Below are positions 1 through 54,675 of a DNA stretch of 64,000 bases, piece by piece; positions within the stretch are counted from its first letter, which is position 1; each line of letters opens with the position of its first letter. The stretch is from Blasia pusilla (Eukaryota), in assembly GCA_050084515.1 (NCBI GenBank), contig CM114271.1:8680001-8744000 (forward strand), given 5' to 3'. Both the position numbers and the translations under genes were made by a program. The notes beneath the pieces were generated by a model. It made no database searches, was not told the DNA's origin, and was given only the letters and a program-made list of their open reading frames with translations.

Positions 1-2783
1 AGTGTTGTTGTTGCAGATGTCGATGCAATTAGAGGAGCAAGTGAGGCGAGTACATCTACCAGGCCTATGCAATATTCGACATGGCCTAGTACTGGCACGT
101 TACGAGAGATGGCGACGACATTGTGTAGCGTCCCACTATTTACGACCACAATTTTGTTGGTATGTGGAGGTCAACCAAGTGAGGTTTTCCGGTTGGCGGA
201 GACGCTTTGTGAGAGCAATGAGTTTGGTTCTTCTAGTGTTGAGACTCGCACAGAAGATGTGGCAGAAGTACCCTTGGAGCAAGTGCTCGGGACGAGGACC
301 ACACAGAGTTGGCATGCAACAGCGGCTAGAGTGGCGGAGTTGCTAGCTAGACCGACCATAGAGCGTGCAACCGTCTCACCATGAGTTTTTGTCTTGGACA
401 ACCGAGATTGAGTTTTCCAGTTGGTTGGTCCATGCGGAGTCGTGTATCGATTGCAGAGAGTGCTACTTGATTCAGAAGCACAACCCCTTATGTTAAGGAA
501 GGTGGCATGTGTAGGGATGGGATTGTGGAAGTGTGAGATCACTCCATGTCCATTCCACATTCAGACTTCTTTGGGAGGCACATCCTAGACACAATTCATG
601 ACTCGAGATGAGATTGCAGTAAGGATTCGGCCTTATCATCCTACGGATAGTGCGATGGTGCGAACGCGAGCGATTGTGACACCGGCCGAGTCTTATGATG
701 TTTTGGTAGGGGCTACCGTATTGTATCCTCTAGGGTTCACACTTGATTTTTGGGAGGAGACATCCTCCTATCGACCAGGCTGGCAGTCACGTGAGGGACG
801 AGCCAGTGAGCTACCCGCGCAATTTGCAAGGAGACTTGATGGTTCACTCCGAGGGTCGACCACAACAATTGCTGCTTATTGTGGCACACTATGTTGGCCT
901 AGAGATATACTAGAGGGCAACGCCAATGCAGAGGATATTCCTGTGGAGGATAGTCCTGAGGAGGGGCATGCGATGACGAGCGTGCCTACATCTGTTGGCG
1001 ACACTTCTTCAGTTTTGTGGGGGACGAGCATGGATTTGCAGAGGAGAGTAGACGAGCTTGTGAGGCAGGCGTGGAGCCAAACCTGTGCTCTAGGAGTGGA
1101 GATGTTGACACCCTTGGACACCACACCGATCATGTGGCAGTATCGCAAGAAGGGTGTGCGTATACTAGATCTCTTTGGAGGGATAAGTACAGCATTGGCT
1201 GCATTGTTGCAGGCAAGAGTACGAGTACAACATTACTTGTATGTGGAGAGAGAGATGAGACTGCACGTAGAGTCTCATTATATCATGTGTCGAGACTAGT
1301 CCAACAGTATCCTCAGTTATTGCTAGTGTCTATAGTTAGGGGATATCAACATGTATTACCGGCTGACATTTTGTTGTTGGGGGCGCCATGTGTAGATAGG
1401 GTTGGTCCGATACACTTGGTGGCGGCAAGGTGGCCATGTCAGGGTCATACTTCGGCGAGTCGGGGACTTGGTTTGCAGGACCCAAGGTCGGCCATGTTTT
1501 GGGAGATGTTGCGAGTTCTTTGTCACTTGCAGACTACCCAGCGATGTTCTCCAGCCTACATTTTGGAGAATGTCCCTTTGTTAGGTAACACTCAAGCCCG
1601 AGTGATGGCAAGTGTACATCTGGTGCGGTTTTGGATAGGACCGGCAGTGATGTTGGATGCGGCGAGCATTGGATCGCACGCATACCATCCACGATTGTGG
1701 TGGACGAATCTTTTACCATCTGTGTTGCTGAGGCCGGCTTATGATGGAGTCCACAGACCATCACTACTTACAGTGGATGGTCTAATCTTGTATCCACGTC
1801 GGCGATCTCATGTTGTTACTCATGATGATGTACCACCGTTGGCAGTGGCCAATCGGGTGGGCCAGCAGAGGGGAGCATTGCCTACGTTGGTGAGTTTTCC
1901 GGCATCTCATGCTTTTTGTCAAGGAGGACCAGGCATGATATGGGATAAGCATGCAGGTACACTAGTGGAGTCTTACGCCGACGAGCTAGAGCAAGCTATG
2001 GGGTTCTCTACAGGTACGATGGTGGTGCCTATGATGGCAGAGGCATCCCGCAGACAGGTATTGGGTCAGGCTATGGACCTGAACTGTCTTACTTGGCTGT
2101 TCAGTCTCGGTTTGGCTGAGCAGAGACGGATGCAAGAGACGTCTGTGACATTACGTCCACTTTGCGCAGCGTCTACCGCGACGGGTAAGACATTGGCTGG
2201 GGGCACGATGGTGATGGAGAGGCATCCATGGACTTCATGGGATAAGTCACAATAGCACAAAGAGATGGGAGTTCATTTCACTGATGCAAGACATAGTGGA
2301 GTGCCTAGAGAGTTGGTGTCTGAGTTGGGAGCGCATGTTGCTGCTCTAGAGGTTGCTAGTCAGCAACCACCACCCTCCTCTTCTCCGGAGGTCACGAGAG
2401 AGACTTGGGAGCCGATTGATTGGTCCTAGGTTGACAGGAGCGGAGAGGAGACGAGTGTTGCAATTCTTTTGGAGATTCAAGGATTGTTTTGCATATAGTA
2501 TGCACGACTTGGATACTCTTAAGGGTCCAGGTTTTTGGATCGAGTTGGAAAGTGATACTCCTATCTTCTGACGACCCTACAGGTATTTTGACAAGGAGCG
2601 AGACTTGATTCAGAGAAGGAGTCAAGACTTCGCTGACGCTGGACTAGTAGAAAGATTGCTTGGAGAGTATGCATCAACCACAGTTATGCCGGCAAAGAAG
2701 GACATGCATGGCCAACGGACCGATATGTGGATGTGCGGGCATTACCATCCTATCAATCGGCATACAAAGGCCGATCGCTATGC
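1..2783 (+). mobile_element. Ty3/Gypsy retrotransposon carrying a C5-DNA methyltransferase, copy A (protease-DNMT-RT N-terminus; degenerate, truncated by the MULE at 2784)
   Basis: Protease VLLDS(E)AQ at ~457 and YDVLVG at ~690. DNMT motifs at 1155-2120. RT start (IELESDTPIF..PYRY, YASTTVMPAKKD, MCGHYHPIN, DRYA) at 2540-2783. Colinear with the copies at 20710-25980 and 45528-54355. Confidence 0.9.
1155..2120 (+). pseudogene. C5-cytosine DNA methyltransferase domain in Gypsy pol (copy A), frameshifted near 1250
   Basis: Motif I LDLFGGIS (1165), motif II YLYVE, motif IV WPCQG (1431), motif VI YILENV (1566), motif VIII HPRLWWTN, motif X RRQVLGQAMD. Confidence 0.9.
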
Positions 2784-2835
2784 GAGGAGCGGTAAGAGGA
2801 GAGGAAGAGAGGAAGAGAGGAGAGAGGAGAGAGGA
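2784..2835 (+). repeat. Left terminal inverted repeat of MULE copy 1 (also at 10608-10660; inverted partner at 29296-29339)
   Basis: GTAAGAGGAGAGGAAGAGAGGAAGAGAGGAGAG matches the reverse complement of CTCTCCTCTCTTCCTCTCTTCCTCTCCTCTCTTAC at 29296-29330. Confidence 0.7.
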
Positions 2836-3189
2836 AACTAGGGTCAACCGAAATAGACACTCTTTTTTGAAGAGAGTTTCCGTTGGGTTGAAAAGAGGAA
2901 ACTTTTTGTTTGAAATCTTTTGCACTTTTTTGTTCATATATTAAGCAGTCCCACAGTTTTTTTTCCTCTTCCATATTTTGGCAACCCCTCTGAGTCCGAT
3001 GAGTTGCAAATTGCACAAAATTTAGAAAAGTGAAAAATCAGTGGAATCATAAGTGTGGAACCAATCACTTTTTCCATCCAAGGTCTCGAAATAATCAGTC
3101 ATTTGCCCAGGGCAGATTAGAGTTCAAGCTCGAAGTGAAGGTTGAGAAAAAAATAAAAGTACAATCTAAAACCTCCTTTGCATCCTCAA

Positions 3190-6100
3190 AGTGGTTTGTT
3201 TAAAATACTTCAAACTTCTTTGAGGGACAGAATTGGTTGGTGGATTCCTACTCCTACCTCCGACTCTCTTAAAACTACCAGCAACACATAGTACATGTGC
3301 TTACAAGGGAAATACCTTTTGCCACTTGTCTCTCTTTGGACAAAGTCATCACATGAACATGTGGGAAAGCAACAAATGTGCACCACATACACCCATGTGA
3401 CACTTGAATTTACAGTGTTATTCCTGACCCAATACAACCTTCCTATACCATTGCCACTCAAGACATCTTTCGTGGCGATGATCTCATTTTGCCTCCCGAG
3501 TGCGCATTCGCTTTGCTCTCTCCACCGTTGGCCTGCACATTCTATTTCTCTTCACCCCATTTCTGGACTCAAACAGAAATAATGGATTGAGATCATCCAC
3601 CTTCTCCGGGTACATGTTGACATCAATCTTGGGTTGAATAAAAAATGCGAGGGTCTCTGTAATGCGAACATGCTCCGAACTTCACCCGTCTACGAGTCTG
3701 AAACCGACACTTGTAAGATTGTCCACTTCGTCTTGAGTGCAGTTCGTGCCTGCGGCGATGGGCCAAATCATGGGGATATTCCCGGAAGCTCCAATGGCAG
3801 CCGGATAAGACTTCCGGAAAGCGCAAGATTCATTTCGGCAGAAGAAGTACTTCAATTGATCCCCGGTCCTTGTCAAACGATCAAAGGTTTTGAGTCCCCA
3901 AAACCCAGGCAGAGGTCGTCTAGTCCTTGTACAGTTCTTATTTAGGAAAGTGCCGCATGCTCTCCTAATGCCATCAGTTCCTGCCCTGCAGGTGGGTCCA
4001 CGTCCTGGGTTGCTCCGAGATATATGCCACCGTTTTAGGTTGCAATTCACCTCCATTATCGGAATCCCATATTGTTGAACCACCCTAGTGACAGGATGTT
4101 GCGAACTTCCAGCAACGGAGGGATTTTGAAATAAAACATTCACTGATTTTGGAGAAGTAACTCCATCACGGATTTGGGACGGGTCCGGGGTCCCCGAATA
4201 CCTGGGTGGTGTAATTTCCTCATCCAAATCAATCACCGGATTCGTTCTCGATCGCCTCTTCACCGCTTTGAAGTCAAGATACTTATCTGGTCTCCACGAG
4301 TCTCGTTCGACGGCTCTACCACCATCTCAGATGGGACATCTTGAAACCCGCCCACAAATATCCCCACCTATGTGTACGTCTTGCTCGAGTGGAGTTCCAC
4401 TACGCACCGGTTGAAGGCCGACATACAATTTTTCATCACAGATCTCACGGCCATTACGACATAGAGCTCATAGATCGACAGCCCTTTTCCTTTTGTTATG
4501 CCTTTTGTGAGAAAGATATGGGCATTTTCATGAACGTTAAATCCCTGCAACGACGGCAATGTTAGAAGGGAACGAAAATAACTCAGGATTCAAAGAAATA
4601 AGCGACCTGTCGGAACCAGACGGATTGCACGCCCGAGGCATCCCATGAACGACTCTGCGACCCGTCGGGTCGCGACGTGTTGTAACCTTAAACCCACCTA
4701 CTGCAACCCGTCGGAACCCGACGGATTGCAAGGCCGAGGCATCCCATGAACGACTCATTGACCCGTCGGGTCCCGACGGGTTGCACACTCGGGTTGTACC
4801 AAACATCAGGATGCAACCCGTTGGTTTGCACCCTCGGGCAACCCGTCGGTTTTCGTCGGGTTGCACACTCGGGCAACCCGTCGGTTTCCGTCAGGTTGCA
4901 CACTCGGGCAACCCGTCGCATCCGACAGCTTGCTTGGTTTCTTGGGTTTAAAATCCATATAATTCCCACGCTTCTCACCCTGAGCTACAACTTTACAAAC
5001 AATTCTCAACGTGAGCTTGATAAGACAAAATAGTGAACTCACCTGCCGCATGAAGTTTCCCCATTGTCTCATACGTACACTCCACCAACTCAACGAAGAG
5101 CACAACTCTTTGTACTTCCCCTCAATCGCATGCTTCCTCCTTCACCCATGAAGTTCTTCCTGGCATTCAATGGCCTGCTTCAAGGTTTTGCTGTCCTTGC
5201 AGCGTTGGAGTAGAGTGACATGCTCTATCCTCTTATTCTCCTTGATGCAAGATTTGGTGTACCGGGTCACAGACTGTTGCCAATGGAAGGCATCTGAACT
5301 TTCCCTCTCCGGTTGAACCTCTCCACCCCATAACACTTCCCGGATAGCAATCCACCCAAGTTGTGCATTGTCTGCCATGAACCCATAAATTTCCGGAGGT
5401 GGCCTTTTGTTTTCCTTCACCACCTCTAGTAAGAGTAACCAGCACATCTTCAAACTGCCAACGTCTTCTGCCTTTACTTCAAAGACAAATATAGTTTTGA
5501 GTCCCTTCTCCACATGGTCATAAACATGAGCACCCATCGTCAACCATCCGTTCAAAGACTCAGAGCAAATATCAAAGCTTACCCAACTCCCGTAAAGATC
5601 TTCCCTTCCTCATTCGATCTAAGATCGAGGCCACTCGAGGACTGTGGGTCGACATTTTGAAGACATAGGCCCTGGATCCTCGCCTCCTTGGCCCATGAAC
5701 TGCCATCTCTAAATGAATGGAAATCTGGAGTTGGCCTTGATTCTGGCGATGGCATCCATTTCGGCCGTCTTTCCATCCAGAACTCGTATGTGACGCAGCA
5801 AATTCCGGAAGCATTCAGGATCAGCGAAAAATGCGAGATTTACCCAAAGTTGTTTCTCCTCAACCGCCGTGATCTCGCCCTGTCCAGGGATTCCAAGCAA
5901 TTTTTCACAAATTTGTGATGCCGTTGTGAGCTTGATCGCTCCGGGCTTTGAACCCGGAGAGTTTCTGTACACCTCGGCTACTTTCTTTGCCACATCCTCC
6001 TTGATGTGTCTTTGAATTGCATCGGTCACAGGATGAGTGTGGGCGCCAACATGGACAACCAGCCTTGTATACTCTAACGTGGAGCCCAAGTCCTGGACAA

Positions 6101-7044
6101 TGAAAAATATGTATGCAAGACACCCTCCAACGCAGAAGGGCGATGCTTGACAATGAGGACATCGATGGCCTCCCGGTGGTATGGTGGCACCGACCTCGTA
6201 TGGAGTTTCTGCATTCTTGGGAGGCAATTGCGACGTATTGACTCGCCCGTTGCGCTCTAGAAACGGGCATGCTGGACTTCTACACTCCAAGGCTCCCACG
6301 CATTGGCGGCGGGAGACAATCCAAGGACCATCTGGAATTGAAGCACTGGTCCGTTGAAGCCCGCACCATCGATGACAATCAGACTTTCTGTCCATACCCT
6401 TCAGGCGTCCTCCATCCTTCTTTTGAGTAGGAGTAGCAAGTGGAGGCAACTCAAAAATGCAATTACCATCGTACATGGGCGGAAGCTCGTCGACAAGAAT
6501 GTGCTTGAACCTTTTCAAGGGCAGAGACGAAAGCAAACTATTGCCTGATACACGCAAGAGGAACGAGTAGGCGGACAGAGGGCCTGATTGGTGTCCGACA
6601 GATCCACTGAGGTTGATAACATCCGGAATCTCTTCAAGAAAAACAATATTGTTACGAGCGTGCGAAGTTGGAGTTGAAGCTGGATCTGCAGAGCTTGGAG
6701 TTGCAAATGTAGAGCTCGGAGCACTAGGAAATTCTAGACCGTCTACTTGGGAAACAGACGGTCAAAGGGGCCGTAAACTCTGTATTGACCATTTGCTAGA
6801 GGTAGGAGATTCCATACTTTACGGTCAGAGGTCACTGGCTGGACCGTCTCACCTATTATGTCTTTCGTACCGTCCACCATAACATCTTTGGATACAAAGA
6901 TGGTTCCAATTTGAAGAAAAATCGAACAGACAGAAAATTTTCATCCACTGCTATGAAAGACTCACGAGCTTGGGGTCCAATGATTTCCGATTGAGGAAAG
7001 GCCGCTTGATGACTGCCACAAGTGAGCTTAACATAATTATCCAT
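3190..7044 (-). pseudogene. MULE-type transposase with GCM-like Zn domain, DDE core and C-terminal SWIM finger (copy 1, frameshifted, one intron ~4546-5042)
   Basis: CVGALECRSPAC..HRCPHC..CVGGC..HVGAHTHP (WRKY/GCM1-like). Core WVSFDIC..GFMADNA..SDAFHW (D, D, CxxH-like). SWIM CSCDDF..FPCKH (~3295-3362). Donor CAG|GTGAG near 5042. Confidence 0.8.
4600..4930. repeat. Array of CAACCCGTCGG-N3-CCGACGGGTTG palindromes in the transposase intron (copy 1; equivalent array at 12590-12905)
   Basis: Repeated caacccgtcggtttccgtcgggttg-like units. Confidence 0.85.
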
Positions 7045-7309
7045 TCCAAGAAGATTCCAACGAGAGGAGACTGAGAATGAGAATGAGAATATTTAATTTA
7101 TAGTGAATAGGAAACAGATACTCCTGACAGATTTTTACTGACAAGATGAATTCGGTGGGTGACATTGTGTGACACAATGGATCCAATTCTGTAACACATT
7201 CTATTCTGTTGCAATATGTTACTGGATTTGGGAAGCAGAGGGTTGCGCATCACACTTGGAACGCGTCGGAGTCCTGGTAACTCAAAAATACCCGAAGCTA
7301 ACCGAAGCC

Positions 7310-7910
7310 TGCAACCCGTCGGCATCGCACGGGTTGCACGCTTCTGCTAAACATTGTCGAAGCAAGCAACCTATCGCTCTCCGACGAGTTGCTCGGATAC
7401 CTCGCCTTTTAGCCCAAAGACGGCGAGGCGTGCAACCCGTCTGTTTCCGACGGGTTACGCAAGGGCCTCGCCTTGTGGTGCACCCAGCCAGACTCTGACG
7501 ACTTGCACGGGAAGCCCTCATTCTTAACCCTTGATGAGGGAAGTGTGCAACCCAATGGTCTTTGACGGATTGCCCAAGATACGTCCCGTTCCCGTCCCAA
7601 ACACGGTGGAGGCGCGCAACATGTCGGTCTCCGACGGGTTGCGCGGGTACCTCGCATTCTTTTCCAAAGACGACGGAGGCGCTCAACCCGTGGGTCTCCA
7701 ACGGGTTGCACGTGCACGTGGCGAGGTACCCAGGATGGCGGAGGCGCGCAACATGTTGGTCTCCGACAGGTTGCGCGGGTACCTCGCGTTCTTTTCCGAA
7801 GACGACGGAGGCGCTCAACCCGTTGGTCTCCGATGGGTTGCTCGCGCACGTGGCGATGTACCCAGGATGGCGGAGCCGCGCAACCTATCGGACTCCGACG
7901 GGTTGCCATT
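7310..7910. repeat. Palindrome array in the divergent promoter region (copy 1; equivalent at 15197-15730)
   Basis: Multiple gcaacccgtcgg..ccgacgggttgc units, partly inside a ~120-bp tandem duplication. Confidence 0.85.
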
Positions 7911-7966
7911 TTTCACGTCCGGACTTCCGTAACATCCGGCACGTCGCCGTTGAAAGGACGACGGGA

Positions 7967-8003
7967 CCCAACGGTGAGCCTAACGGCTAGAAAAGTATAA
8001 ATA
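7967..8003 (+). promoter_or_regulatory. Two MSA-like (AACGG) elements plus TATA box upstream of the ParB-MTase gene, copy 1
   Basis: CCCAACGGTGA, CCTAACGGCTA, then TATAAATA at 7996-8003. Confidence 0.55.
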
Positions 8004-8294
8004 GGGCAGAAATCGCTCATTTCCGGTTTCTCATTTCGCGATCTTCATTCCTCACTCTCTCGCGGAGCAACTGATCAGATACAAAGGGGCATTTCACACG
8101 GCGACACATCGCGAGTCGATAGGAGGGATTGAGAGCGAGACTGTTCGACGCAGCGACAGCGAGACGGTTCAACCAAGCGATCGCGGGATCATTTGAGCTA
8201 CCCATCAAGGCAATTCGAGCTCCCATCTCGACATCAGCAAGGCGACTGATCAAGGGATTCATCGTGGACATAGGTGCAGGCATTTCCGAAAAAA

Positions 8295-10603
8295 ATGACG
8301 AGGAAAAAATCACAAGCCAACAAGTCTGGGAGCTTCACTCCGAAGTCCATTAGGACTCCTACGTTAGCTTCTCCTAGGCCTCGTTCGGCGAATGAAATTA
8401 GGCAGCAGGAAATCGAGGAGCGGGAAAGGGAAGCGGAGATGCACAACCAAGTGCTTCTTGCAAGACGTGTTCAAGAGGCGCTAGATAAACAGAACGCAGA
8501 GGCTGAGACGTCGCAGGCCTTGAAGAAAAGGATCGCGGCGACTTAAAAGAGAGAAAAGAAGCGTCTGGACGCGTCGGTGAGGAGGGCAGAATTGGCTAAA
8601 GCGAGGAGGGAAAAAGCGATAGCCATTGACGATAGCCCCGCCCGTCCAACTCCAAGTGTTGAGATGCGGGAAATGTCCCCCACAAAGTCCGGGGACACAA
8701 TCAACATTGTGGAAACACCAGAAGTTGAAATCGATGACGACGAGGTCATGAGGACCGCCAGCGTGGAGATGGTGGACATGGCCGAAGAAGCCGGAGGCCG
8801 GTCATTCTCGACTCCAAGCTCTGGTTACCGAGGAGGACTTGGAAAAGCTCGACACATTCTGGAGGATGCGAGACCAGGACTTCAGAAGGCAAGTTGAGGG
8901 CACGGAATTCAGCTGGATGAGGAATCTGCATTTCTTCATCTGGGATGGAAATCACAGTTTCATGGAGTGGACCAAGTTTGCGGAGGAGCGGACCAACTCA
9001 TTGGAGGCACATTTATGCGTGAAGGCAGTGGTCCTTCACCCATACCCTCATCACATGGCGACGGTGGAGATGGCAATGCATGCCATGAACACGTGAGTAT
9101 CTTTAACACTTTCGAAACTCGTCGGACTCCGATGAGTTGCTCGATTGATGAATGGGTTAGGTTTGTTTTTGCCAAAAGCAACTCGTCGGACTCCGACGGG
9201 TTGCTCGACTGCACGCTTTTTCGGATATTTTTTTAAGATTGCAACTCGTCGGACTCCGACGACTTGTTTGATTGACCATAGATTTAACTAGAGTTTGGCC
9301 CAAAGCAAATCGTCGGAGTCCGACGGGTTGATTTCGGCCAAAAACAGTTTCGAGGCAAGCAATCCGTCGGACTCCAACGGGTTGCTTTGGGGAAAAAACC
9401 TTCTAAACCTGCAGTGACTCGAACAACTCGTCGGAGTCCGACGAGTTGCATTCTTCAAAAAACATCCTCACAAGGCGGCCTATCGAGCAACCCGTCGGAC
9501 TCCGACGGTTTGCTTACCAAGCATTAGCAAATCTGAATGCAATCCGTCGGACTCCGACGGGTTGCATCATTTAGCTCGTTGCTAGAATCCAACCTTGAGC
9601 TGTGACGACCCGTCAGACTCCGACGGGTTGCAGGAGCCCATGTAATTTCCTGACGGGTTGAGTTTGGATGTGCAGGATTGTATCGGAGGGGAATGTCACC
9701 CATCACTGGATCCAGGACTGCGATCGGGTGAGGAAGGTGCTTACGACGAACCCGGGAGAGTACAAGGGGTTCTTGGGCGATGCCTTCGTCAATCAGATGC
9801 TTGCAAAGGGTGCTCAGATTAAGAAGAAAACTTGGGCAAATAAGTTTATTTCTCAAGATGCACCAGAACCATCCTTTTGCAAAGTTGAAGATACAGCCGT
9901 GAAGAAAAGTCTGCGACCGAGCCGGAGCGGAGGGAGAAGGTATCGCGTCTGAGCGCGCCAAATTCATCAAGCCGCAGATCTGCCGCAACGAAATACACGG
10001 CGAGCAAGATGCAGCGATACATCAAGATTCTCAACCCCGAACTTGGTCCGAGTTCTACAAGGAGCCAAGGCAATTATCAACCGCTGCGGAAGAGGGATGA
10101 AGATCCGCATGGTCGGATTGGGAGAAAGTGTCATTTGGATCGCGTGCATCGGTTTGCGTTGTCGGGATAAGCGAAGTTTAGGAGGATACGATCGGATGAA
10201 AATCGTCTCGAGGGCTCAAAGGCCTAGAAGAGGGCGCACACCATCCTCGGGTGTGTCGATCCGATGATCTTGCATTGGCTCGCGAATGGTCGTTCGGGAT
10301 GCGCATGGTAATCGGAAGTCCGTCTTTGGGACGGATGCAAGCGGAGCTCAGAAGATTAGAGCCCATTTCTCCAAGAGCAAACCTTGAAAGTTCTGGAGAT
10401 TTCGAGGTTTGGCTCGATGACATCCGGGACAAGCCAACCAAGAACCCATGATTCAAGACCATGTTCAAGGTTTGCGTCCTCCCTCAGGCAGAGCCTGACG
10501 AAGAAGTAGAGGGGAACAAACGGGATCAAGCGAAGAAGAAGCGAGATCTATAGGAGCATACGGCTGATTCTGTTCGACTAAAAGCTACCCAACGGATGGT
10601 CTT
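8295..10603 (+). pseudogene. ParB-like/methyltransferase gene, copy 1 (N-terminal half only, internal deletion, frameshifts)
   Basis: MTRKKSQANKS.. coiled-coil N-terminus and FFIWDGNHS at ~8944. Homologous to 16077-18978. Confidence 0.75.
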
Positions 10604-11010
10604 CAGGGAGGTGCGGTAAGAGGAGAGGAAGAGAGGAAGAGAGGAGAGAGGAGAGAGGAAACTACCTTCAACCGAAATAGATACTTTTTTTTGAAGAGAG
10701 TTTCCGCTGGGTTGAAGAGAGGAAACTTTTTGTGTGAATATTTTTGCACTGTTTTGTTCATTTATTAAACAATCCCACCGTTTTTTTTTCCTCTTCCATA
10801 TTTTGGCAACCCCTCTGAGTCCGACGAGTTGCAAATTGCACAAAATTTAGAAAAGTGAAAAATCAGTGGAATCATAAGTGTGGAACCAATCACTTTTTCC
10901 ATCCAAGGTCTGGAAAAAATCTATCATTTTCCCCGGGCTGAATAGAGTTCAAGCTCAAAGTGAAGGTTGAGGAAAAATAAAAGTACAATCTAAAACCTCA
11001 TTTTGCATCC

Positions 11011-14000
11011 TCAAAGTGGTTTGTTTAAAATACTTCGCACTTCTTTGAGGGATGAATTGGTTGGTGGATTCCTACTCCTACCTCCGACTCTCTTAAAACT
11101 ACCAAAGAACACATAGTACATGTGCTTACAAGGGAAATACCTTTTGCCACTTGTCTCTCTTTGGACAAAGTCATCACATGAACATGTGGGAAAGCAACAA
11201 ATGTGCACCACATACACCCCTGTGACACTTGAATTTACAGTGTTGTTCCTGACCCAATACATCCTTCCTATTCCATTGCCATTCAAGACATCTTACGTGG
11301 CGATGATCTCCATTTTTGCCTCCCGAGCTAATGCAATTCGCTTTGCTCTCTCCACCGTTGGCCTGCACATTCTGTTTCTCTTCACCCCATTTCTAGACTC
11401 AAACAAAAATAATGGATTGAGATCATCCACCTTCTCCGGGTACATGTTGACATCAATATTGGGTTGAATACAAAATGCGAAGGTCTCTGTAATGCGAACA
11501 TGCTCTGAACTTCCCCCGTCTACGAGTCTAAAACCGTCACTTGTAAGATTGTCAACTTCGTCTTGAGTGCAGTTCGTGCCTGCGGCGATGGGCCAAATCG
11601 TGGGGGTATTCCCGGGAGCTCCAATGGCAGCCAGATAAGACTTCCGGAAAGCGCAAGATTCATTTGGGCAGAAGAAGTACTTCAATTGATCCCCGGTCCT
11701 CGTGAAACGATCAAAGGTTTTGAGTCCCCAAAACCCAGGCAGAGGTCGTCGATCCTTATGCAGATTCTTATTTAGGAAAGTGCCGCATGCTCTCCTAATG
11801 CCATCAGATCCTGCCCTGCAGGTGGGTCCACGTCCTGGGTTGCTCCGAGATATATGCCACCGTTTTAGGTTGCAATTCACCTCCATTATCGGAATCCCAT
11901 ATTGTTGAACCACCCCAGTGACAGGATGTTGCGAACTTCCAGCAACGGAGGGCTTTTAAAATAAAACATTCACTGATTTTGGAGAAGTAACTCCATCACG
12001 GATTTGGGACGGGTCCGGGGTCCCCGAATACCTGGGTGGTGTAATTTCCTCATCCAAATCAATCACCGGATTCGTTCCTCGATGCTGCCTCTTCACATGC
12101 CTGAAGTCAAGATACTTATCTGATCTCCACGAGTCTCGTTCGGACAGCTCTACCACCATCTGTATGGGACGTCATGAAACCCGCCCACGAATATCCCCAC
12201 CTATGTGTACGTCTTGCTCGAGTGGAGTTCCAGCTACGCACCGGTTGAAGGCTTCGACATACAATTTTTCATCACCAGATCTCACAGCCGCCCTAACATA
12301 GAGCTCGTAGATCGACGGCCTTTTCCTTTTGTTATGCCTTTTGTGAGAAAGATATGGGATGCTACAGACTGTAGCATTGCTCTTGCCTGGTCTTGTTGGC
12401 ATGCCTCCACAAGTGAAATTCGTTGGCATGCTTGTGACGACCTCCAAGAGGAATGAACACTTTGTGCTCCACTTGTGTTGGGGCAGAGGGCATTTTAATG
12501 AACGTTCAATCCCTGCAACGACGGAAATGTTAGAAGGGAACGAAAATAACCCAGGAGTCAAAGAAATAAGCGACTTGTCGGAACCAGACAGGTTGCAGGC
12601 CCGAGGCATCCCATGAACGACTCTGCGACCCGTCGGGTCGCGACGTGTTGTAACCTTAAACCCACCTACTGCAACCCGTCGGAACTTGACAGGTTCAAGG
12701 CCGAGGCATCCCATGAACGACTTTGTGACCCGTCGGGTCCCGAATGGTTGCACACCCGGGACGACACCAAACATGTGGATGCAACCTGTCGGTTTCTGTC
12801 GGGTTACACACTCGGGCAACCCGTCGGTTTCCGTCAAGTTGCACACTTGGGCAACCCGTCGGTTTCCGTCGGGTTGCACACTCGGGAAACCCGTCGCATC
12901 CGACAGCTTGCTTGGTCTCTTGGGTTTAAAATCCATATAATACCCACGCTTCTCACCCTGAGCTACAACTTTACAAACAATTTTCAGCGTGAGCTTGACA
13001 AGATAATAGTGAACTCACCTGCCGCATGAAGTTACCCCATTGTCACATACGTACACTCCACCAACTCAACCAAGAGCACAACTCTTTGTACTTCCCCTCA
13101 ATCGCATGCTTCCTCCACCATCCATGAAGTTCTTCGTGGCATTCCATGGCCTGCTTCAAGGTTTTGCTGTCCTTGCAGCGTTGGAGTAGAGTGACATGCT
13201 CCGTCCTCTTATTCTCCTTGATGCAAGATTTGGTGTACGGGTCACTGATTATTGTTGCCAATGGAAAGCATCCGACCTTTCCCTCTCAGGTTGAACCTCT
13301 CCACCCCAGAACACTTCCCGGATAGCAATCCACCCAGGTTGTGCATTGTCCGCCATGAACCCATAAATTTCCGGAGGTGGCCTTTTGTTTTCCTTCACCA
13401 CTTCCAATAAGAGTAACAAACACATCTTCAAACTGCCAACATCTTCTGCCTTTACTTCACACACAAATATAGTTTTGAGTCCCTTCTCCACATGGTCAAA
13501 AACGTGAGCACCCATCGTCAACCATCCGTTCAGCACTCTGTAGCAAATATCAAAGCTTACCCAGCTCCCGTAAAGATCTTCCCCTTCCCTCATTCGATCT
13601 AAGATCGAGGCCACTCGAGGGACCTGTGGTTGACATTTTGAAGACATAGGCCCTGGATCCTTTGCCTCCTTGGCCCATGAATTGCCATCTCTCAATGAAT
13701 GGAAACCTGGAGTTGGCCTTGATTCTGGCGATGGCATCCATTTCGGCCGTCTTTCCATCCAGAACTCGTATGTGACGCAGCAAATTCCTGAAGCATTCAG
13801 GATCATCGAGAAATGCGAGATTTACCCAGAGTTGTTTCTCCTCAACCGCCGTGATCTCGCCCTGTCCAGCGATTCCAAGCAATTGTTCACAAATTTGTGA
13901 TGCCGTTGTGAGCTTGATCACCCCGGGCTTTGAACCCGGAGAGTTTCTGTAGACCTCGGCTACTTTCTTCGCCACATCCTCCTTGATGTGTCTTTGAATT

Positions 14001-14929
14001 GCATCGGTCACAGGATGAGTGTGGGAGCCAACATGAACTGCCACCCTTGTATTCTCTGAAGTGGAGCCCAAGTCGTGGACAATGAAAAATATGTATGCTA
14101 GACACCCTCCAACGCAGAAGGGCGATCCCTCACAATGAGGACATCGATGGCCTCCCGGAGGTATGGTGGCACCGACCTCGTATGGAGTTTCTGCATTCTT
14201 GGGAGGGAATTGCGACATATTGACTCGCCAGTTGCGCTCTAGATACGGTCATGCTGGACTTCTACACTCCAAGGCTCCCACGCATTGGCGGCGAGAGACA
14301 ATCCAAGGACCATCTGGAATTGAAGCACTGGTCTGTTGAAGCATGCACCATCGATGACAATCAGACTTTCTGTCCATACCCTTCAGGCGTCCTCCATCCT
14401 TCTTTTGAGCAGGAGCAGCAAGTGGAGGCAACTCGCAAGAGGAACGAGTAGGCGGACAGAGGGCCCGATTGGTGCCCGACAGATCCACTGAGGTTGATAA
14501 CATCCGGAATCTCTTGTGGAAAAACAACATTGTTACGAGCGTGCGAAGTTGGAGTCGAAGCCGGATCTGCAGAGCTTGGAGTTGCAAACGTAGAGCTCGG
14601 AGCACTAGGAAATTCTAGACCGTCTACTTGGGAAACAGACGAATTCAGGGGCACGCCGTAAACTCTGTATTGACCATTTGCTAGAGGTAGGAGATTCCAT
14701 ACTTTACGGTCTGAGGTCACTGGCTGGACCGTCTCACCTATTTTGTCTTTCGTACCGTCCACCCTAACATCTTTGGATACAAAGATGGTTCCAATTTGAA
14801 GAAAAATCGAACAGACAGAAAATTTTCATCCACTGCTATGAAAGACTCACGAGCTTGGGGTCGAATGATTTCCGATTGAGGAAGGGCCTCCAAATGACTG
14901 CCATAAGTGAGCTTAACATAATTATCCAT
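11011..14929 (-). pseudogene. MULE-type transposase with GCM-like domain, DDE core and SWIM finger (copy 2, frameshifted)
   Basis: ORFs 14738-14929, 14249-14605, 13550-14218, 13249-13806 (SFDICYR, FMADNAQ, DAFHW), 13043-13261, 11293-11913 and 11011-11286 (CSC..CKH). Confidence 0.8.
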
Positions 14930-15787
14930 TCCAAGAAGATTCCAACGAGAGGAGATTGAGAATGAGAATGAGAATATTTAATTTATAGTGAATAGGAAAC
15001 AGATACTCCTGACAGATTTTTACTGACAAGATGAATTCGGTGGGTGACATTGTGTGACACAATGGATCCAATTCTGTAACACATTCAATTCTGTTGCAAT
15101 ATGTTACCGGATTTGGGAAGCAGAGGGTTGCGCATCACACTTGGAACGCGTCGGAGTCCTGGTAACTCATAAATTACCCGAAGCTAGCAGAAGCCTGCAA
15201 CCCGTCGGCATCGGACGGGTTGCACGCTTCTGCTAAACATTGTCGAAGCGAGCAACCCGTCGCTCTCCGACGAGTTGCTCGGATACCGATCCTTCTTGCC
15301 CGAAGATGCCGGAGGCGTGCAAACCGTCTGTTCCTGACGAGTTCCGCGGGTGCCTCGCCTTTTAGCCCAAAGACGGCAAGGCGTGCAACCCGTCGCCCTC
15401 CAACGGGTTGCGCAAGGGCCTCGCCTTGTGGTGCAGCCAGCCAGACTCCGACGACTTGCACGGGAAGCCCTCATTCCTAACCCTTGATGAGGGAAGCGTG
15501 CAACCCAACGGTCTCCGACGGATTGCCCAAGATACGTCCCGTTCCCGTCCCAAACACGGCGGAGGCGCGCAACATGTCGGGCTCCGACGGGTTGCGCGGG
15601 AACCTCGCGTTCTTTTCCGAAGACGACGGAGGCGCTCAACCCGTCGGTCTCCGACGGGTTGCTTGCGCACGTGGCAACGGACATAGGAAGGCAGAGCCGC
15701 GCAACCTGTCGGACTCCGACGGGTTGCCATTTTTCACGTCCGGACTTCCGCAACATCCGGCACGTCGCCGTCGAAAGGACGACGGGA

Positions 15788-15824
15788 CCCAACGGTCAGC
15801 CCAACGGCTAGAAAAGTATAAATA
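15788..15824 (+). promoter_or_regulatory. Tandem MSA elements plus TATA box, copy 2
   Basis: CCCAACGGTCA (15788-15798) and CCCAACGGCTA (15800-15810) match YCYAACGGYYA. TATAAATA at 15817-15824, ~250 bp before the ATG at 16077. Confidence 0.6.
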
Positions 15825-17419
15825 GGGCAAAAATCGCTCATTTCCGGTTTGTCATTTTGCGATCATTATTCCTCACCCCTCACTCTCCCGCGCATCAGCT
15901 GATCAGATACGAAGGGGCATTTCACAGGGCGACACATCGCGAGTCGATAGGAGGGAACGAGAGCGAGACGGTTTGACCGAGCGATAGCGGGACGATTCGA
16001 GCTCCCATCTCGACATCAGCAAGGCGACTGATCAAGGAATTTGTCGTGGACATAGGTGGAGGCATTTCCGGCAAAAATGACGAGGAAAAAAACACAAGCC
16101 AACAAGTCAAGGAGCTTTACTCCCAAGTCCATTAGGACTCCTACGTCCGCTTCTCCTGGGCCTCGTTCGGCGAATGAAATTAGGCAACAAGAAATGGAGG
16201 AGCGGGAAAGGGAAGCGGAGATGCACAACCAAGTGCTTCTTGCGAGATGTGTTCAAGAGGCGCTAGATAAACAGAACGCAGAGGCCGAGACGTCGCAGGC
16301 CTTGAAGAAAAGGATCGCCGACGAAAAGAGAGAAAAGAAGCGCCAGGAAGTGTCGGTGAGGAGGGCAGAATTGGCTAAAGCGAGGAGGGAAAAAGCGATA
16401 GCCATTGACGATAGCCCAGCCCGTCCAACCGCCAGTGTTGAGATGCAGGAAATGTCCCCCACGAAGTCCGGGGACACAATCAACATAGTGGAAACTACAG
16501 AAGTTGAAATCGATGACGACGAGGTCATGAGGACCGCCAGCGTGTAGATGGTGGACATGGCCGAAGAAGCCGGAGAGCGGTCATTCTCAACTCCAAGCCC
16601 GGCGGAGGACATCGACCTCTATCGGATCGACGAGTTCCCAGTCGATTTTCCAGCCTCTGTCTCAGACAAGTTAGCTAGTCAAGAAACCGACCCCATTTTC
16701 GAATGCCCATTTCTTCCTTTTCTGGTCTTGTTGTGGCCTTCAGGTTTTGACTCTTTGAGTCCCCCTCTTTTGTACTTCCGATGGGTTTTCCATCACTCGT
16801 TTTTATCGAAGTGCATCTTTCTTCTTTTCGAGCGGGTAAGAGAGGTTCTGGGTTTTTTTAATTATGTGAATCGCAATTCATTGGGAGTTCATGTGTAGCT
16901 TATTCCTCTTGTCCCGGTTCTAATAGGTGGTGAAGCAGATGGCACTCATGGAGGGCCACAACGCCCCGAGGATTCCACTCTACCGATTGCGGACAATGGA
17001 ATACGTCCGCGAAATTCAGTCCGACGAGGACATTGCGAAGCTAAAACAATCGGCGGCGACAGCATCCTACGTCGACAACTTTCCTCCCTTCTATATTCAG
17101 CCTTACGACGAGCATGGAACCCAAGCTCTGGTTACCGATGAGGACTTGGAAAAGCTCGACACATTCTGGAGGATGCGAGACCAGGACTTCAGAAGGCAAG
17201 TTGAGGACACAAAATTCTGCTGGATGAGGAATCTGCATTTCTTCATTTGGGATGGGAATCACAGGTTCATGGCGTGGACCAAGTTTGCGGAGGAGCGGCC
17301 CAACTCATTGGAGGCACATTTCTACATGAAGGCAGTGGTCCTTCACCCATACCCTCATCACATGGCGACGGTGGAGATGGCAATGCACGCCATGAACACG
17401 TGAGTATCTTTAACACTTT

Positions 17420-18030
17420 CGCAACTCGTCGGACTCCGATGAGTTGCTCGATTGATGAATGGGTTAGGTTTGTTTTTGCCGAAAGAAACTCGTTGGACTC
17501 CGACGGGTTGCTCGACTGCACGCTTTTTCGGATCTTTTTTTAAGATTGCAACTCGTCGGACTCCGACGACTTGTTTGATTGAACATAGATTTAACTAGTT
17601 TTTGGCCCAAAGCAAACCGTTGGAGTCCGACGGGTTTCTCGACAGGCCGCCTTGTGAGGATGTTTTTTGAAGAATGCAACTCGTCGGACTCCGACGGGTT
17701 GATATGGGGAAAAATAGCTTCGAGGCAAGCAACCCGTCGGACTCCGACGGGTTGCTTTGGGGAAAAAACCTTCTAAACCTGCAGTCACTCGAGCAAATCG
17801 TCGGAGTCCGACGGGTTGCATTCTTAAAAGAACACCCTCACAAGGCGGCCTATCGAGCAACCCGTCGGACTCCGACGGTTTGCTTACCAGGCATTAGCAA
17901 ATCTGAATGCAATCCGTCTGACTCCGACGGGTTGCATCATTAAGCTCGTTGCTAGAATCCGACCTTGAGTGCGGACGACCGTCGAGTCCGACGGGTTGCG
18001 AAAACCCATGTAATTTCTCGACGGGTTCAG
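17420..18030. repeat. Palindrome array with a nested ~200-bp inverted repeat in a ParB-MTase intron (copy 1 equivalent 9115-9660)
   Basis: Perfect GCAACCCGTCGGACTCCGACGGGTTGC at 17729-17755. aggccgccttgtgagg.. (17644) is inverted at ..cctcacaaggcggcct (17851). Confidence 0.85.
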
Positions 18031-19916
18031 TTTGGATGTGGAGGATTGTATCGGAGGGGAATGTCACCCACCATCGATCCAAGATCTGCGATCGGGTGAG
18101 GAAGGTGCTTACAACGCACCCGGGGAGAGTACTGAGGGGTTCTTGGCGATGCCTCGTCAATCGATGCTTGCAAAGGGTGCTCGGATCAAGAAGAAAACTT
18201 GGGCAAACAAGTTTATTTCTCAAGATGCAACCGTAGCCATCCTTTGCTGGTCGAAGATTCAGGCCGCGAAGAAAAGCGCTGCACTGGAGCTGGAGCGGAG
18301 GGAGAAGGTAACTGCGTCTGAGTGCGCCAAATTCATCCAAGTTGCAGTATCTGCTGCAACGAAATACACGGCGAGCAAGATGCAGCGATACATCAGCATT
18401 CTCAACCCCGAACTTGGTTCCCAGTTCTACAAGGAGCTGAAGGCGATTATCAAGCGCCAGCGGAAGAGGGATGAAGATCCGCATGGTCGGATTGGGGAGA
18501 AAGTGTCGCAGGATCACGTGCATCGGTTTGCGTTGTCCGGGATAAGCGAGTTTAGAAGGATATGACTGATGAAAATCAGTCTTGAGGGCTCAGAGGCCCA
18601 GAAGAGGGCGGCACACCATCCTCCCGGTGTGTATGATCCAGTGATCTCGCATTGGCTACGCGAATGGTCCTTCTGGGACGCGTTGCGGGTAATCGGAAAG
18701 TCCGTCTTTGGACGATGCAAGCGAGCTCGAAGATTGGAGCCCATTCCGCCGGAAGCAAACCTTGAAAGTTCTGGAGATTACGAGGTTTGGCTCAACGACA
18801 TCCGGGACAAGCCAGCAAAAAACCCAGGATTCAAGACCATGTTCAAGGTTTGCGTCCTCCCTCAGGCAGAGCTTGACGAAGAAGTAGAGGGGAACAAACG
18901 GGATCAAGCGAAGAAGAAGCGAGATCTACAGAGCAGACGGCCGATTCGTTTCGATTTAAAGTCGCCCAACGGATGGTCTTGTGTACCTCGCCCGTGTAAG
19001 AACGCAGGTACGTGGGGAAAATTACCGGTAGCCTTGAAGTTGTGGGCTTTGCTGCCGGATGCAGAGACATTCTCCATGTACGACGTGGAGATGGGGCAGC
19101 ACATGTTCGATTGGGAGGTGGAGAATTGCCCCATTTGGCTCGACTTCAACGACCCTGAAGACATCACGGATAAGGACTTACGAGTGCTTCATGATGCAGT
19201 GACCTCAGGACAAGACGACATCCCCAATTTTGTCCAGCCTGAAGACTTCTTCAAGGAGATGCAGAAGAGCAGGCCCACGAGACAGCTGAGTTCGCTTCCA
19301 AGGTCCGGACAACCAAAGACAAATCCACAATGGTCTCAAAGGCAAGGCGAGGGGAGGGAAAATTCAGAGGCCGAGTCTTCCCAAAGAGAGGTCAAGATTC
19401 AAGGCCAGAGGCGGAATCGTCGGACGAAAGCGGGGAGAGAGGGTCGGACGGATCCTCGGCGAAAAAAAACGCCACGAATCCGAGGTCATAGAAACCTGAC
19501 AAGCCATCCCAGGCTAGGAGAAGCGGAGCGAGAGGTGCCTGGGTTGTCCCAAGGAGAATACTGACCCCATCGCCTTGGGAAGACACAGACAAACAACGAC
19601 CGAACAAGCGTCCTCCTTGATTCCTCCTTTATTGGATGAGTGAAGCCTTGATTCTCAAGTGTCGACACCGACCATCAAAATCGACAACGTTGGGACGGAA
19701 GCTCCAACGAAACGGGCACGCTGCCTGGACGGTGAATGGAGTGGTCGAAGAGGTTGCGGTGGATCTCTTGATCGCCGATCTGCCCTCGGGGTTGCGACTT
19801 TGGGGCGAGAATCCGTTGGACGAGGTACCTGAGTGGAATGTGCCACTCACTTATGACCAGATTGCACTTTTGTTCTCCTTTGCATACGCCTATCTGAGTG
19901 ACAGGGGCTGCTTTCT

Positions 19917-20709
19917 CCCTCGATCGCCATTTCCAAGCCAACTCATTCAGATCTCCTCCTCATTTCTTGCGTCCCTCCTTGAGCGTCTGAGTCTAGCCGC
20001 TACCTTTGAGTTTCCCTAAGCAACCGGTTGATCCCACGACCCCAAGTTCTCGCTCACCAAGGATTTGCTCTGATACCACTTGTCGCGCCCCTACTCTCCT
20101 TGAACGTCAATCTTTAGTATTGCGGAAGCGTACGTTCAGTAGGTCACGAACTCATCGCCGATCTAACACCCAAACACGCACTCGTTAGTCGGGTCCGGGC
20201 CAACCGGCGTCCAACCCACCGAGTCCTCAACTCGGCGTCTCATCAAGCTCAACCTTCCTTAGTTCCTAGTTTCCAAAACATGGCAAGTCCTTCAAGACTT
20301 GGAACAGACTTCCTGGTTAGTCCAGGGATCTGAAGCGGCACTTGCGCGCCTAGCGATCCCAACTGTTCAACGGTCCTCGGGGGAGTTCCGAACCGAGACC
20401 CAAGTAATTGAGTCGCGGGGTGGAATCCAAGAGGGATGTCTAAAATCGCCTCAATGGACTTGGTGCAGGTTTTCCAACCCAACCCCCAAACTCGCGTTCC
20501 GTTCCATGCCCTTGAGCCGCCCCGCGGCGCCCAAAGTGGGGTTTGGGTTCCAAGCACTCTCAGAGACCTTCCCCCTTTTTAGTACTTCTGAGGTTCTCTA
20601 ATAACCCCTCCCCTTAGGGAAAAGAGGGTCGGGCCCTTCATTGTGGCCCTCAACCCGACTCCACTTACAGTCGTTTTCGGGTTGTATCTCGGCCGCTGCT
20701 TATGCGTTT
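19917..20709 (-). mobile_element. Chromovirus fragment: partial 5' LTR (20081-20709), tRNA-iMet PBS (20067-20078) and a short internal piece
   Basis: GCTCTGATACCA is the reverse complement of TGGTATCAGAGC. The adjacent LTR matches 42750-43751 and 46832-47835. Confidence 0.85.
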
Positions 20710-29339: not shown

Positions 29340-29376
29340 CCAGAATACCAGCCCCCCCTAAAAAATCGTGACAATT

Positions 29377-30504
29377 GTATGTGATAGGATACGGGGATGG
29401 TTCAATGATCCAACACCACACTTGCATCCTTTACCAATCATGGGATTAGGGTATCGCTGGAGTTTAGACTTTGCATGGCCTTTACCATTGACAAGACGCC
29501 ATAGTCGGTACGTGTTGGTCATGGTGGAGCACTTCTCCAAGTGGATCGAGTTGGTAGCATTGTTGGAGGGGTCGAGTGAGGGAGCGGCTTATGCATTTCT
29601 TGATAGAGTGCTTAGTCACTTCGGCGCACCAACAGAGGTGTTAACAGACCAGGGTACTGATTTTAGGAGTGACTTTCAGGCCTTGTATGATCAGGCACTG
29701 ATATATCATTGTACGACTTCTCGAGATCATCCGGAGGCAGATGGTTTGGTAGAGAGAGTTTGGCAGACGGTGAAGAGAGGATTGCGCAAGTATGGACTGT
29801 AGAGAGGACATTTTCTAGATTGGGACCTACAGTTGCCATGGTTGGCGATGGGTTACCGCTTCAGTCGGTAAGCATCCTTGGCATCATTTTCACCATATTT
29901 CTTGCTCTATGGGAGAGAGCCAGAGTTATAGGCGTCAATTTGACGATATGTGGTTGAGATACTTGACCTCGATGATCTAGACGTATGGTTGCGAGCATGT
30001 TCTCAGCGGGCTAAGCTCCTTTGGAGAGTCATGCCTATGGCGTTTGAGAACTTGGCTATCAAACAACATTGCGATACTCTGAGATACACGACTACGCGTG
30101 GAGGAGGCTATCAATGAGAGATTCAGCAATTCCATCCTGGCGATTATATCCACCTACAGTAGACAATGCCGATAACATTGGACGTGACGGTGGGATGCAC
30201 TATTTTGTGAGTGCGAGAGATTTTACCTTCAGAAGTCCTTGTTTTAGAGGGTCATGACGGTACCGTTTGGAAAGATCGTGTGCGTAATTGTGCGCCATGT
30301 CATCTTCCAAATGTAGATGGGAGGATTGATCCGAGCTTGGCAGTTGATCCTGCGGGCTTGAGATGCATGTTGTATGGGTCTGCCAGAGGCGCAGCCACGA
30401 TGCTAGTTTGTAATGGGTATTTTCGATGATGGCATATGTCATGTTTGACACCGCCTCTTGACTTGGTTCCTCAGGGACGTTGGCTTCTTCCCAGATGTAC
30501 ATAG
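29377..30504 (+). pseudogene. Gypsy-DNMT family integrase with a C-terminal PHD finger (degenerate)
   Basis: RWSLDFAWP..VEHFSKW..LTDQGTDF..HPEADGLVER, followed by CML(Y)..MLVCNG(Y)..WHMSCLTPPL..VPQGRWL(L)PRC* at 30364-30504. Confidence 0.85.
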
Positions 30505-30680
30505 GTGTGATAGGTAGATACAAGATGACTCTTGATATTATGGATTGCAGGAAGGTGACTAATGATAGGACCACATAGCACCCGACCTCTTGATCTAAGC
30601 ACCGAAAAGATGCATAATATTTAGACTTATTTTGTAGGCTATTTGGAGTTAGAGGCAACTAACCACTAGCTAGGGGGCGA

Positions 30681-37636: not shown

Positions 37637-37708
37637 GTGAGTCCACTAAAGTTCTGATGTTCCGCTTGGTGCCTACATGGTGTTCGTTTGGTTATGAGGG
37701 TCGCGACA
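37637..37708 (-). mobile_element. Terminal fragment of the chromovirus LTR
   Basis: ..ttggttatgagggtcgcgaca matches the LTR ends at 43751 and 45315. Confidence 0.8.
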
Positions 37709-45315: not shown

Positions 45316-45327
45316 TAATCTCTTGGT

Positions 45328-45527
<200 letters not shown>

Positions 45528-54353: not shown

Positions 54354-54355
<2 letters not shown>

Positions 54356-54435
<80 letters not shown>

Positions 54436-54675
54436 TTTGTGTGCACCATGGAGAATTTGTTGTGAGAGATCTACTTGATTTAATTGGAGATATTTTGGTA
54501 CTTGATCATCTCGATGTGTGGACACCATGGAGAATTTATTGTGAGAGATCTACTTGATTTAATTGGAGATATTGGTATTTGATCATCTTGATGTGTGGAT
54601 GCCATGAGGTACCATAGTATCTTGGGTGTTTTTGTGTGTGTGTGTGTTGGGTGATAGTGATGTGTATGCGCATGA
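54356..54675 (+). repeat. (GA)n tract (54356-54432) followed by an ~80-bp tandem duplication and a B repeat
   Basis: caccatggagaattt..gagagatctacttgatttaattggagatatt occurs twice, then a B-like tail gtgtatgcgcatgata. Confidence 0.75.

Follow-up and report, generated by a model that had tools for sequence, protein, structure and literature searches.

Decayed copies of a Ty3/Gypsy retrotransposon family with a predicted DNMT3-type methyltransferase domain in Pol, in a window of the Blasia pusilla genome

We asked whether a stretch of 64,000 nucleotides from Blasia pusilla (GenBank assembly GCA_050084515.1, contig CM114271.1, positions 8,680,001 to 8,744,000 of the forward strand; hereafter the window, numbered from its first letter) contains retrotransposons that carry a DNA methyltransferase (DNMT) as part of their own Pol protein. 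An earlier note, written from the letters alone, had described such a family, with a C5-cytosine methyltransferase between the protease and the reverse transcriptase (RT) of a Ty3/Gypsy element. Elements of this kind are known from Klebsormidium nitens, where DNMT3 domains have been described in the Pol open reading frame (ORF) of Gypsy elements, with their catalytic residues retained and a Ka/Ks < 0.2 (de Mendoza et al., 2018; PMC5890265). The window, eukaryotic DNA rich in repeats, shows on self-comparison a mosaic of nested and truncated repeats. It very probably holds three old, inactivated insertions, in two subfamilies, of a Ty3/Gypsy family carrying a collinear DNMT3-type domain.

The methyltransferase domain and its place in the element

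We scanned 116 stop-to-stop ORFs of at least 45 aa, from the relevant strands of three regions, against Pfam. Exactly three ORFs matched the methyltransferase profile PF00145, at 960–2252 (+; 21.3 bits), 23002–23427 (−; 32.6 bits) and 49836–50348 (−; 21.2 bits). All three copies of the domain are therefore matched by the profile, the second above its cut-off of 22 bits and the other two just below it because the domain is split across frames; relatives score 27.5–46 bits. The copies were then mapped codon by codon by tblastn onto two intact Marchantia relatives, P0058 (gag-protease-DNMT, 1278 aa) and P0064 (protease-DNMT-RT-RNase H). The three copies (c1 on the plus strand, c2 and c3 on the minus strand) belong to a single Ty3/Gypsy family and comprise the following features:

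1–2783 (+): copy c1, Gypsy-DNMT3 element (blastn, 107–2783 against 24607–21928; tblastn with P0058 and P0064)
415–772 (+): c1 aspartic protease region; active site LLDSEAQ, not LLDSGAQ; in-frame stops at 382, 409 and 586
1168–2165 (+): c1 DNMT3-like C5 methyltransferase domain (PF00145; tblastn to P0058)
1168, 1431, 1560, 1692 and 2061 (+): starts of c1 DNMT motifs I, IV, VI, VIII and X, respectively
2416–2783 (+): start of the c1 RT, truncated at 2783 (tblastn with P0064 residues 699–821, 57.7% identity)
20818–25876 (−): copy c2; gag 25876–24818, protease 24299–23942, DNMT, RT-RNase H 22304–20818
22550–23528 (−): c2 DNMT3-like domain (PF00145 on ORF 23002–23427)
45681–52258 (−): copy c3, second subfamily (blastn, Pfam, tblastn); gag 52258–50955, protease C-terminal part 50889–50724, RT 49054–47832, RNase H 46831–46570, integrase 46471–45681
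49351–50342 (−): c3 DNMT3-like domain (PF00145 on ORF 49836–50348)

In the window self-blastn, c1 (107–2783, +) and c2 (24607–21928, −) are 83.8% identical over 2713 nt, and c3 (~50404–48679, −) is ~65–70% identical to either; c1 and c2 form one subfamily and c3 a second. Two diverged subfamilies were what the earlier note had proposed, and the domain positions it gave (1155–2120, 22600–23545 and 49400–50350) lie near those located by tblastn (1168–2165, 23528–22550 and 50342–49351).

The DNMT sits between the protease and the RT in the window copies, as the note had placed it, and RT follows DNMT in all three (Pfam and tblastn). The RVT_1 and RT_RNaseH matches of c2 and c3 lie downstream of PF00145 on the same strand, and c3 also has integrase matches (on the minus strand, RVT_1 48354–48512, RT_RNaseH_2 47649–48239, Integrase_H2C2 46142–46396 and rve 45729–46138). 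The pol order is thus protease-RT-RNase H-integrase, that of Ty3/Gypsy (Metaviridae-type) elements. The 5′ end of c1 coincides with the window start (P0058 residue 496 onward), an unrelated 7.8-kb repeat truncates the copy at 2783, and the RT of c1 is visible by tblastn only, with no Pfam match in the ORF scan. Copy c2 retains an intact protease DSG and stops after RNase H, without an integrase. By tblastn, P0058 gag aligns with the gag of both c2 and c3; none of the 116 window ORFs matched zf-CCHC in the Pfam scan, and P0058 residues 424–684, which include the protease active site, gave no tblastn alignment in c3.

All three window copies are dead pseudogenes, and nothing here is functional. 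The c1 DNMT has a single frameshift at ~1243–1248, separating motif I from the others, and no stop within the domain. The c2 DNMT has two frame changes (~23316 and 22835–22842) and five stops (23486, 23465, 23001, 22902 and 22793); mapped to P0058 as a whole, c2 has 19 in-frame stops and three frame changes. The c3 DNMT has one frame change (~50003–49996) and stops at 49981 and 49858, with motifs I, IV, VI, VIII and X all legible.

The mosaic of nested, truncated repeats is the kind of setting in which fragments of a host DNMT3 gene and of retrotransposons might have come together by chance. Against such a juxtaposition, the same junctions occur on both sides of the domain in three copies from two subfamilies, and relatives in other genomes have gag-protease-DNMT and DNMT-RT covered by single ORFs or by alignments in one frame. 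We rejected chance juxtaposition on the strength of these shared junctions and continuous ORFs, and regard its probability as negligible. The domain is integral to the element, as had been claimed from the letters, and occupies the same place in the three window copies and in dozens of relatives elsewhere.

Class of the domain and selection on it

Motifs I, IV, VI, VIII and X are collinear, following one another in that order along the sequence in all three copies. Copies c1 and c3 agree at motif I (DLFGGIS), motif VI (ILENV) and motif VIII (RLWWTN). The motif IV sequence WPCQG is common to all three copies, as is motif X in one of two forms, LGQAMD or LGQAID; at motif VI, c2 has ILENI. The earlier report of these motifs in every copy holds as to their order and legibility, with the reservations that motif VIII of c2 reads RL*WMN, with an in-frame stop, and that the reading frame changes between motif I and motifs IV–X in c1 and between motifs IV and VI in c3.

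The c1 ORF alone has DNMT3A as its best solved relative, a weak match (E 0.007). Profile A1 is an alignment of 21 diverse family members numbered by its first row, the window ORF 960–2252. Searched against the PDB, it matches DNMT3A at 7.7e-23 (84 bits), DNMT3C at 2.2e-21 and DNMT3B at 4.3e-21, followed by tobacco DRM (8e-11), M.HhaI (4e-10), Arabidopsis DRM2 (~1e-8) and DNMT2 (1.6e-8). Seven residues are invariant among the 21 members (C160, Q161, E203, W248, N250, R364 and G369), and N204 is near-invariant. In motif terms the invariant residues are the catalytic Cys-Gln (IV), the ENV Glu (VI), W and N (VIII) and R and G (X).

The AlphaFold model of a relative (P0003, 66% identical to the c1 ORF) has a pLDDT of 90.6 and a pTM of 0.89. 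In a Foldseek search with this model, the matches listed (to rank 49) are all DNMT3A, 3B or 3C, with a best E of 3.8e-19 and TM scores of 0.81–0.86 against DNMT3 chains of catalytic-domain length, and the modelled fold matches DNA-bound DNMT3A/B structures across the whole domain. By profile and predicted fold, the element domain is assigned as a collinear DNMT3-type C5 cytosine methyltransferase catalytic domain.

A DRM-like reading was rejected: the motifs are collinear, not permuted, and DRM chains match in two permuted pieces at far lower scores. Of the note's designation 'DNMT3/DRM-like', only the first half survives. Neither PWWP nor ADD was found in the 31 relatives scanned with Pfam, and the domain is flanked by protease and RT. 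A search of the ESM Atlas returned generic PF00145 clusters only, one streptophyte and two mostly viral.

We estimated the ratio of nonsynonymous to synonymous substitution rates (dN/dS) by the Nei-Gojobori method, pairing codons via the coordinates of the relative:

DNMT, c1–c3: 0.23 (308 codons)
DNMT, c2–c3: 0.20 (299 codons)
RT-RNase H, between subfamilies: 0.19–0.21
gag, c2–c3: 0.21
protease region, between subfamilies: 0.22–0.28
DNMT, c1–c2: 0.70 (bootstrap interval 0.49–1.02)
protease region, c1–c2: 0.77

During subfamily divergence the DNMT was under purifying selection of the same strength as RT-RNase H. Since its dN/dS of ~0.2 equals that of RT-RNase H, selection retained the DNMT during the active life of the lineage. 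The near-neutral c1–c2 values are as expected for decay after insertion. Neutral evolution, which the note had named as a ground for refuting its reading, does not describe the domain between subfamilies; the window copies themselves are out of frame, and c1 and c2 diverged almost neutrally, at 0.70.

Some results pull the other way. No window copy is intact, each carrying frameshifts and stops, and sensitive blastn (word size 7) found no long terminal repeats (LTRs) around c2 and c3 in the window, only short low-complexity matches. Values of dS between the subfamilies are saturated (1.6–1.9), which weakens the dN/dS estimates, and the protein-guided tblastn pairing of codons biases them downward. 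The Klebsormidium enzyme, the one Gypsy DNMT to have been tested, produced no detectable de novo methylation in yeast, a result that its authors call inconclusive (PMC5890265). With these points counted against it, we regard three old insertions of a DNMT3-carrying Ty3/Gypsy family as the very probable account of the window.

Relatives, architectures and origin

Of 57 proteins of comparable length found with the c1 ORF, a Calypogeia fissa sequence ranks first (E 2e-127, 63% identity); Sphagnum species, Riccia sorocarpa and Marchantia polymorpha supply others. A match of this strength leaves the homology to PF00145-bearing proteins beyond doubt. Among 23 longer proteins at E ≤ 1e-10, 15 are M. 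polymorpha models of 949–1333 aa; Sphagnum fallax and Closterium are also represented. An exhaustive HMMER search of 1.84 billion cluster representatives gave 1044 matches at E ≤ 1e-3, of which 470 reach E ≤ 1e-10 and 70 reach E ≤ 1e-30. A protein of Symbiodinium kawagutii gave one weak match (E 7e-6). Among named organisms, the nearest relatives come from liverworts and mosses (Calypogeia, Marchantia, Riccia, Sphagnum), and those from Closterium are more distant. Five DNA sequencing runs contain small shares (0.05–0.14) of the sequence words, and no RNA run was listed as containing them.

We built an unrooted tree (LG+G4, quick search) of 51 DNMT domains, all retroelement-borne; it leaves out domains covering fewer than 270 profile positions (both Sphagnum proteins among them), all proteins with the DNMT before integrase only, and every second type-B protein. 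In this tree c1 and c2 are sisters, and a 12-member clade (SH-aLRT 100) unites all three window copies with sequences from Calypogeia and Marchantia. From this placement a liverwort host is probable. Sequences of the Closterium type and those with the order RNase H-DNMT-integrase form separate groups, the latter with an SH-aLRT of 95. These comparisons support a land-plant (bryophyte) lineage related to the Closterium sequences, in agreement with the land-plant-type lineage that the note had suggested.

Full-length relatives were found in metagenome contigs, in which 331 relative-encoding stretches were recognised among 532 pattern matches and 80 were kept; nine loci with long flanks were examined. 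Three of the nine (L033, L029 and L007) hold elements of 9016–9070 bp bounded by direct repeats of ~345 bp. These LTRs start with TG, end with CA, are 86–94% identical and lie ~8.7 kb apart, and this single terminal pair is the only repeat at E ≤ 1e-10 and at least 80 bp. The inner order is gag-protease-DNMT-RT-RNase H-integrase in all three loci, and in L007 gag to DNMT plus the start of RT lie in one frame. The full-length relatives have the layout of an ordinary LTR retrotransposon.

Pfam scans and a local placement of domains located RT or integrase in 94 of the 244 proteins that match the DNMT profile. The DNMT precedes RT, as in the window, in 19 of the 94; it follows RT-RNase H in 54, of which 41 also have it directly before integrase; and in the remaining 21 it could be placed only as directly before integrase. 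Relatives with the window order include P0071 and P0073 (zf-CCHC, Asp_protease, DNMT), P0064 (DNMT-RVT_1-RNase H) and P0096 (the whole series), and Pfam finds zf-CCHC in P0073, P0096, P0101 and P0107. The second architecture, with the DNMT3-like domain between RNase H and integrase, is found in P0097, P0117, P0129, P0209 and others, and most such proteins given a Pfam scan have a C-terminal PHD finger after the integrase. This architecture is more numerous than protease-DNMT-RT; its named example is 'pol' of Scenedesmus sp. PABB004, and the before-RT type is linked by name to Closterium species. We found no published description of the RNase H-DNMT-integrase-PHD architecture in the literature searched.

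The two architectures bear on whether the bryophyte elements share their DNMT3 by descent with the Klebsormidium element (KnitGypsy-Dnmt3) or captured one independently, by convergence. That related DNMTs occupy two sites in Gypsy pol, one ahead of RT and one separating RNase H from integrase, would fit more than one capture. So would the terminal repeats, which are described as having a DIRS-like arrangement (A-coding-B-A-B) in Klebsormidium (PMC5890265) and in the full-length relatives here form one plain LTR pair. No Klebsormidium protein was returned by three word-indexed protein searches, which is weak evidence because those searches are limited by shared words and length, and the Klebsormidium retro-DNMT3 was also absent from name look-ups of 20 representatives. 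However, among relatives from the HMMER search the DNMT domains of the two architectures are 30–42% identical (E down to 1e-60), which is a far closer match than that between the family profile and DNMT3A (84 bits), and Closterium elements have the same protease-DNMT-RT order. We consider independent capture unlikely.

Taken together, the data may describe, in place of a peculiarity of Klebsormidium, an old, diverse green-lineage clade of Gypsy-DNMT3 elements that lasted into land plants in two pol architectures, one in Closterium and bryophytes and the other in chlorophytes such as Scenedesmus. It would have arisen by a single capture followed by relocation within pol or transfer between Gypsy lineages. 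In bryophytes, whose genomes retain a host DNMT3, the element DNMT3 could, when expressed, add de novo methylation to the genome. We offer this joint reading as possible, at somewhat less than an even chance.

Surrounding repeats

The repeats around the copies include three features that touch c3 or its family:

46832–47831 (no strand assigned): foreign insertion of ~1 kb splitting the c3 RNase H (self-blastn)
37654–39000 (+): RNase H-integrase fragment from the same Gypsy family or one closely related to it, short of the DNMT region (self-blastn, tblastn)
29374–30688 (+): fragment, integrase and 3′ region, short of the DNMT region

The repeat in the insertion (~0.6–1 kb) occurs three times, at 20080–20709, where it adjoins the truncated end of c2, at 42750–43582, and at 46832–47461 inside the c3 RNase H. 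The fragment at 37711–38991 spans the c3 flanks without the ~1-kb insertion (37868/37872 against 47839/46826).

The repeat that cuts c1 is the first of two head-to-tail copies (2784–10603 and 10608–18980) of a ~7.8–8.4-kb unit, 86–94% identical. Its CpG observed/expected ratio (0.92–0.93) is above that of the remaining window, and four of its longer ORFs have no Pfam match. As a sign of methylation, CpG depletion does not discriminate the Gypsy copies (0.67–0.70 observed/expected) from the whole window (0.72).

Just beyond the gag end of c2, a 179-aa ORF at 26651–27187 (+) matches PF01555 at 23 bits, below the cut-off of 26.7. The weak match covers the S-adenosylmethionine (AdoMet)-binding end of beta-class N6/N4 DNA methyltransferases (M.RsrI, E 0.012), and the ORF may represent part of another DNA methyltransferase gene or element, unrelated to the first. 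At 61863–63479 (−), a 538-aa ORF free of interruptions, with the domains gag_pre-integrs, rve and SH3_retrovirus, constitutes the integrase part of a Ty1/Copia element, which looks much younger than the Gypsy-DNMT3 copies. The window also contains a tandem array at 34490–37277 (period ~345–350 bp, units 65–79% identical) and long (GA)n/(CT)n microsatellites on both sides of c3 (45136–45552 and ~54200–54465).

Possible function and comparison with known systems

In this family, gag(CCHC)-protease-DNMT-RT-RNase H-integrase make up a single gag-pol polyprotein, and expression of an active copy would yield the DNMT as a part of it. The enzyme could then methylate cytosines of the element's new complementary DNA (cDNA) or of a freshly integrated copy, and a copy methylated in this way might resemble host-methylated DNA or have its chromatin state set. 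Self-methylation of cDNA was proposed for the Klebsormidium Gypsy-DNMT3 elements (de Mendoza et al., 2018; PMC5890265). By analogy the same mechanism might apply here; we advance it tentatively, and think it more likely to be wrong than right.

Purifying selection indicates that the DNMT has a function and is silent on its nature. The domain could have been kept for something other than the element's own cDNA: candidates are action on RNA, a DNMT3L-like non-catalytic partnership with host DNMT3, or methylation of host DNA near the integration site. The lack of PWWP and ADD targeting modules speaks for a role of this sort, as does the yeast result described above. A dead DNMT3L-like partner is at odds with the near or full invariance, in 21 diverse members, of the catalytic Cys, of the Glu in ENV and of the residues in motifs VIII and X. 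The match of the modelled fold to DNA-bound DNMT3A/B structures over the entire domain also counts against these other roles. We regard these other roles as improbable, though they carry real weight beside self-methylation of the element's cDNA.

Retrotransposons carrying the host's own silencing enzyme are a rare case of a parasite co-opting host epigenetic machinery. The published Gypsy example is one charophyte whose enzyme gave no readable activity (PMC5890265). Members in liverworts and mosses, including many annotated but undescribed M. polymorpha models, bring the question to a model plant in which methylomes, transformation and genome editing make it tractable. The window itself contributes only dead copies; what makes it useful is that it points to the family and the second architecture.

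Full-text literature searches found no description of bryophyte DNMT-carrying Gypsy elements; supplements, which lie outside such searches, may list them. PMC5890265 mentions neither Marchantia nor liverworts, mosses or Sphagnum. A later preprint refers in one line to 'streptophytes (Gypsy-DNMT3)' (bioRxiv 10.64898/2026.05.21.726589), and DNMT3 in streptophyte retrotransposons is cited in PMC12344493.

Among known systems, host DNMT3A, 3B and 3C (PDB 6w89, 6f57, 6kda and 8tci) give the best profile and fold matches, with motifs I–X collinear as in the element. The element domain differs from DNMT3A in motif IV (WPCQG, not the PCN of the DNMT3A alignment), in length (~320 residues against ~285 in the crystal chains), and in lying within a retroelement polyprotein without PWWP and ADD. 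Symbiodinium, too, has C5 methyltransferases carried by retrotransposons, SymbioDIRS-Dnmt3 and SymbioLINE-Dnmt, of which the former are DNMT3-type and in Pol; both kinds come from other classes of retroelement (DIRS, which have a tyrosine recombinase, and LINE) and from a different host kingdom (PMC5890265). The 'pol' type of Scenedesmus sp. PABB004 has a homologous DNMT3-like domain (30–39% identity to the window ORF) in a Ty3/Gypsy pol, placed after RNase H and directly before integrase, with a PHD after the integrase, unlike the before-RT site of the window family.

The closest described counterpart is KnitGypsy-Dnmt3 (PMC5890265), which shares with the window family a non-rearranged DNMT3-type domain in the Pol of a streptophyte LTR Gypsy element, retained catalytic residues and purifying selection (Ka/Ks < 0.2, against ~0.2 between subfamilies here). 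The window family differs in its host, a land plant, and in its nearest named relatives, liverworts and mosses; its full-length relatives have a plain LTR pair where the Klebsormidium elements are described as DIRS-like. The Gypsy-DNMT3 kind was thus already known from Klebsormidium, and the present analysis adds land-plant members, a plain LTR structure and a second architecture.

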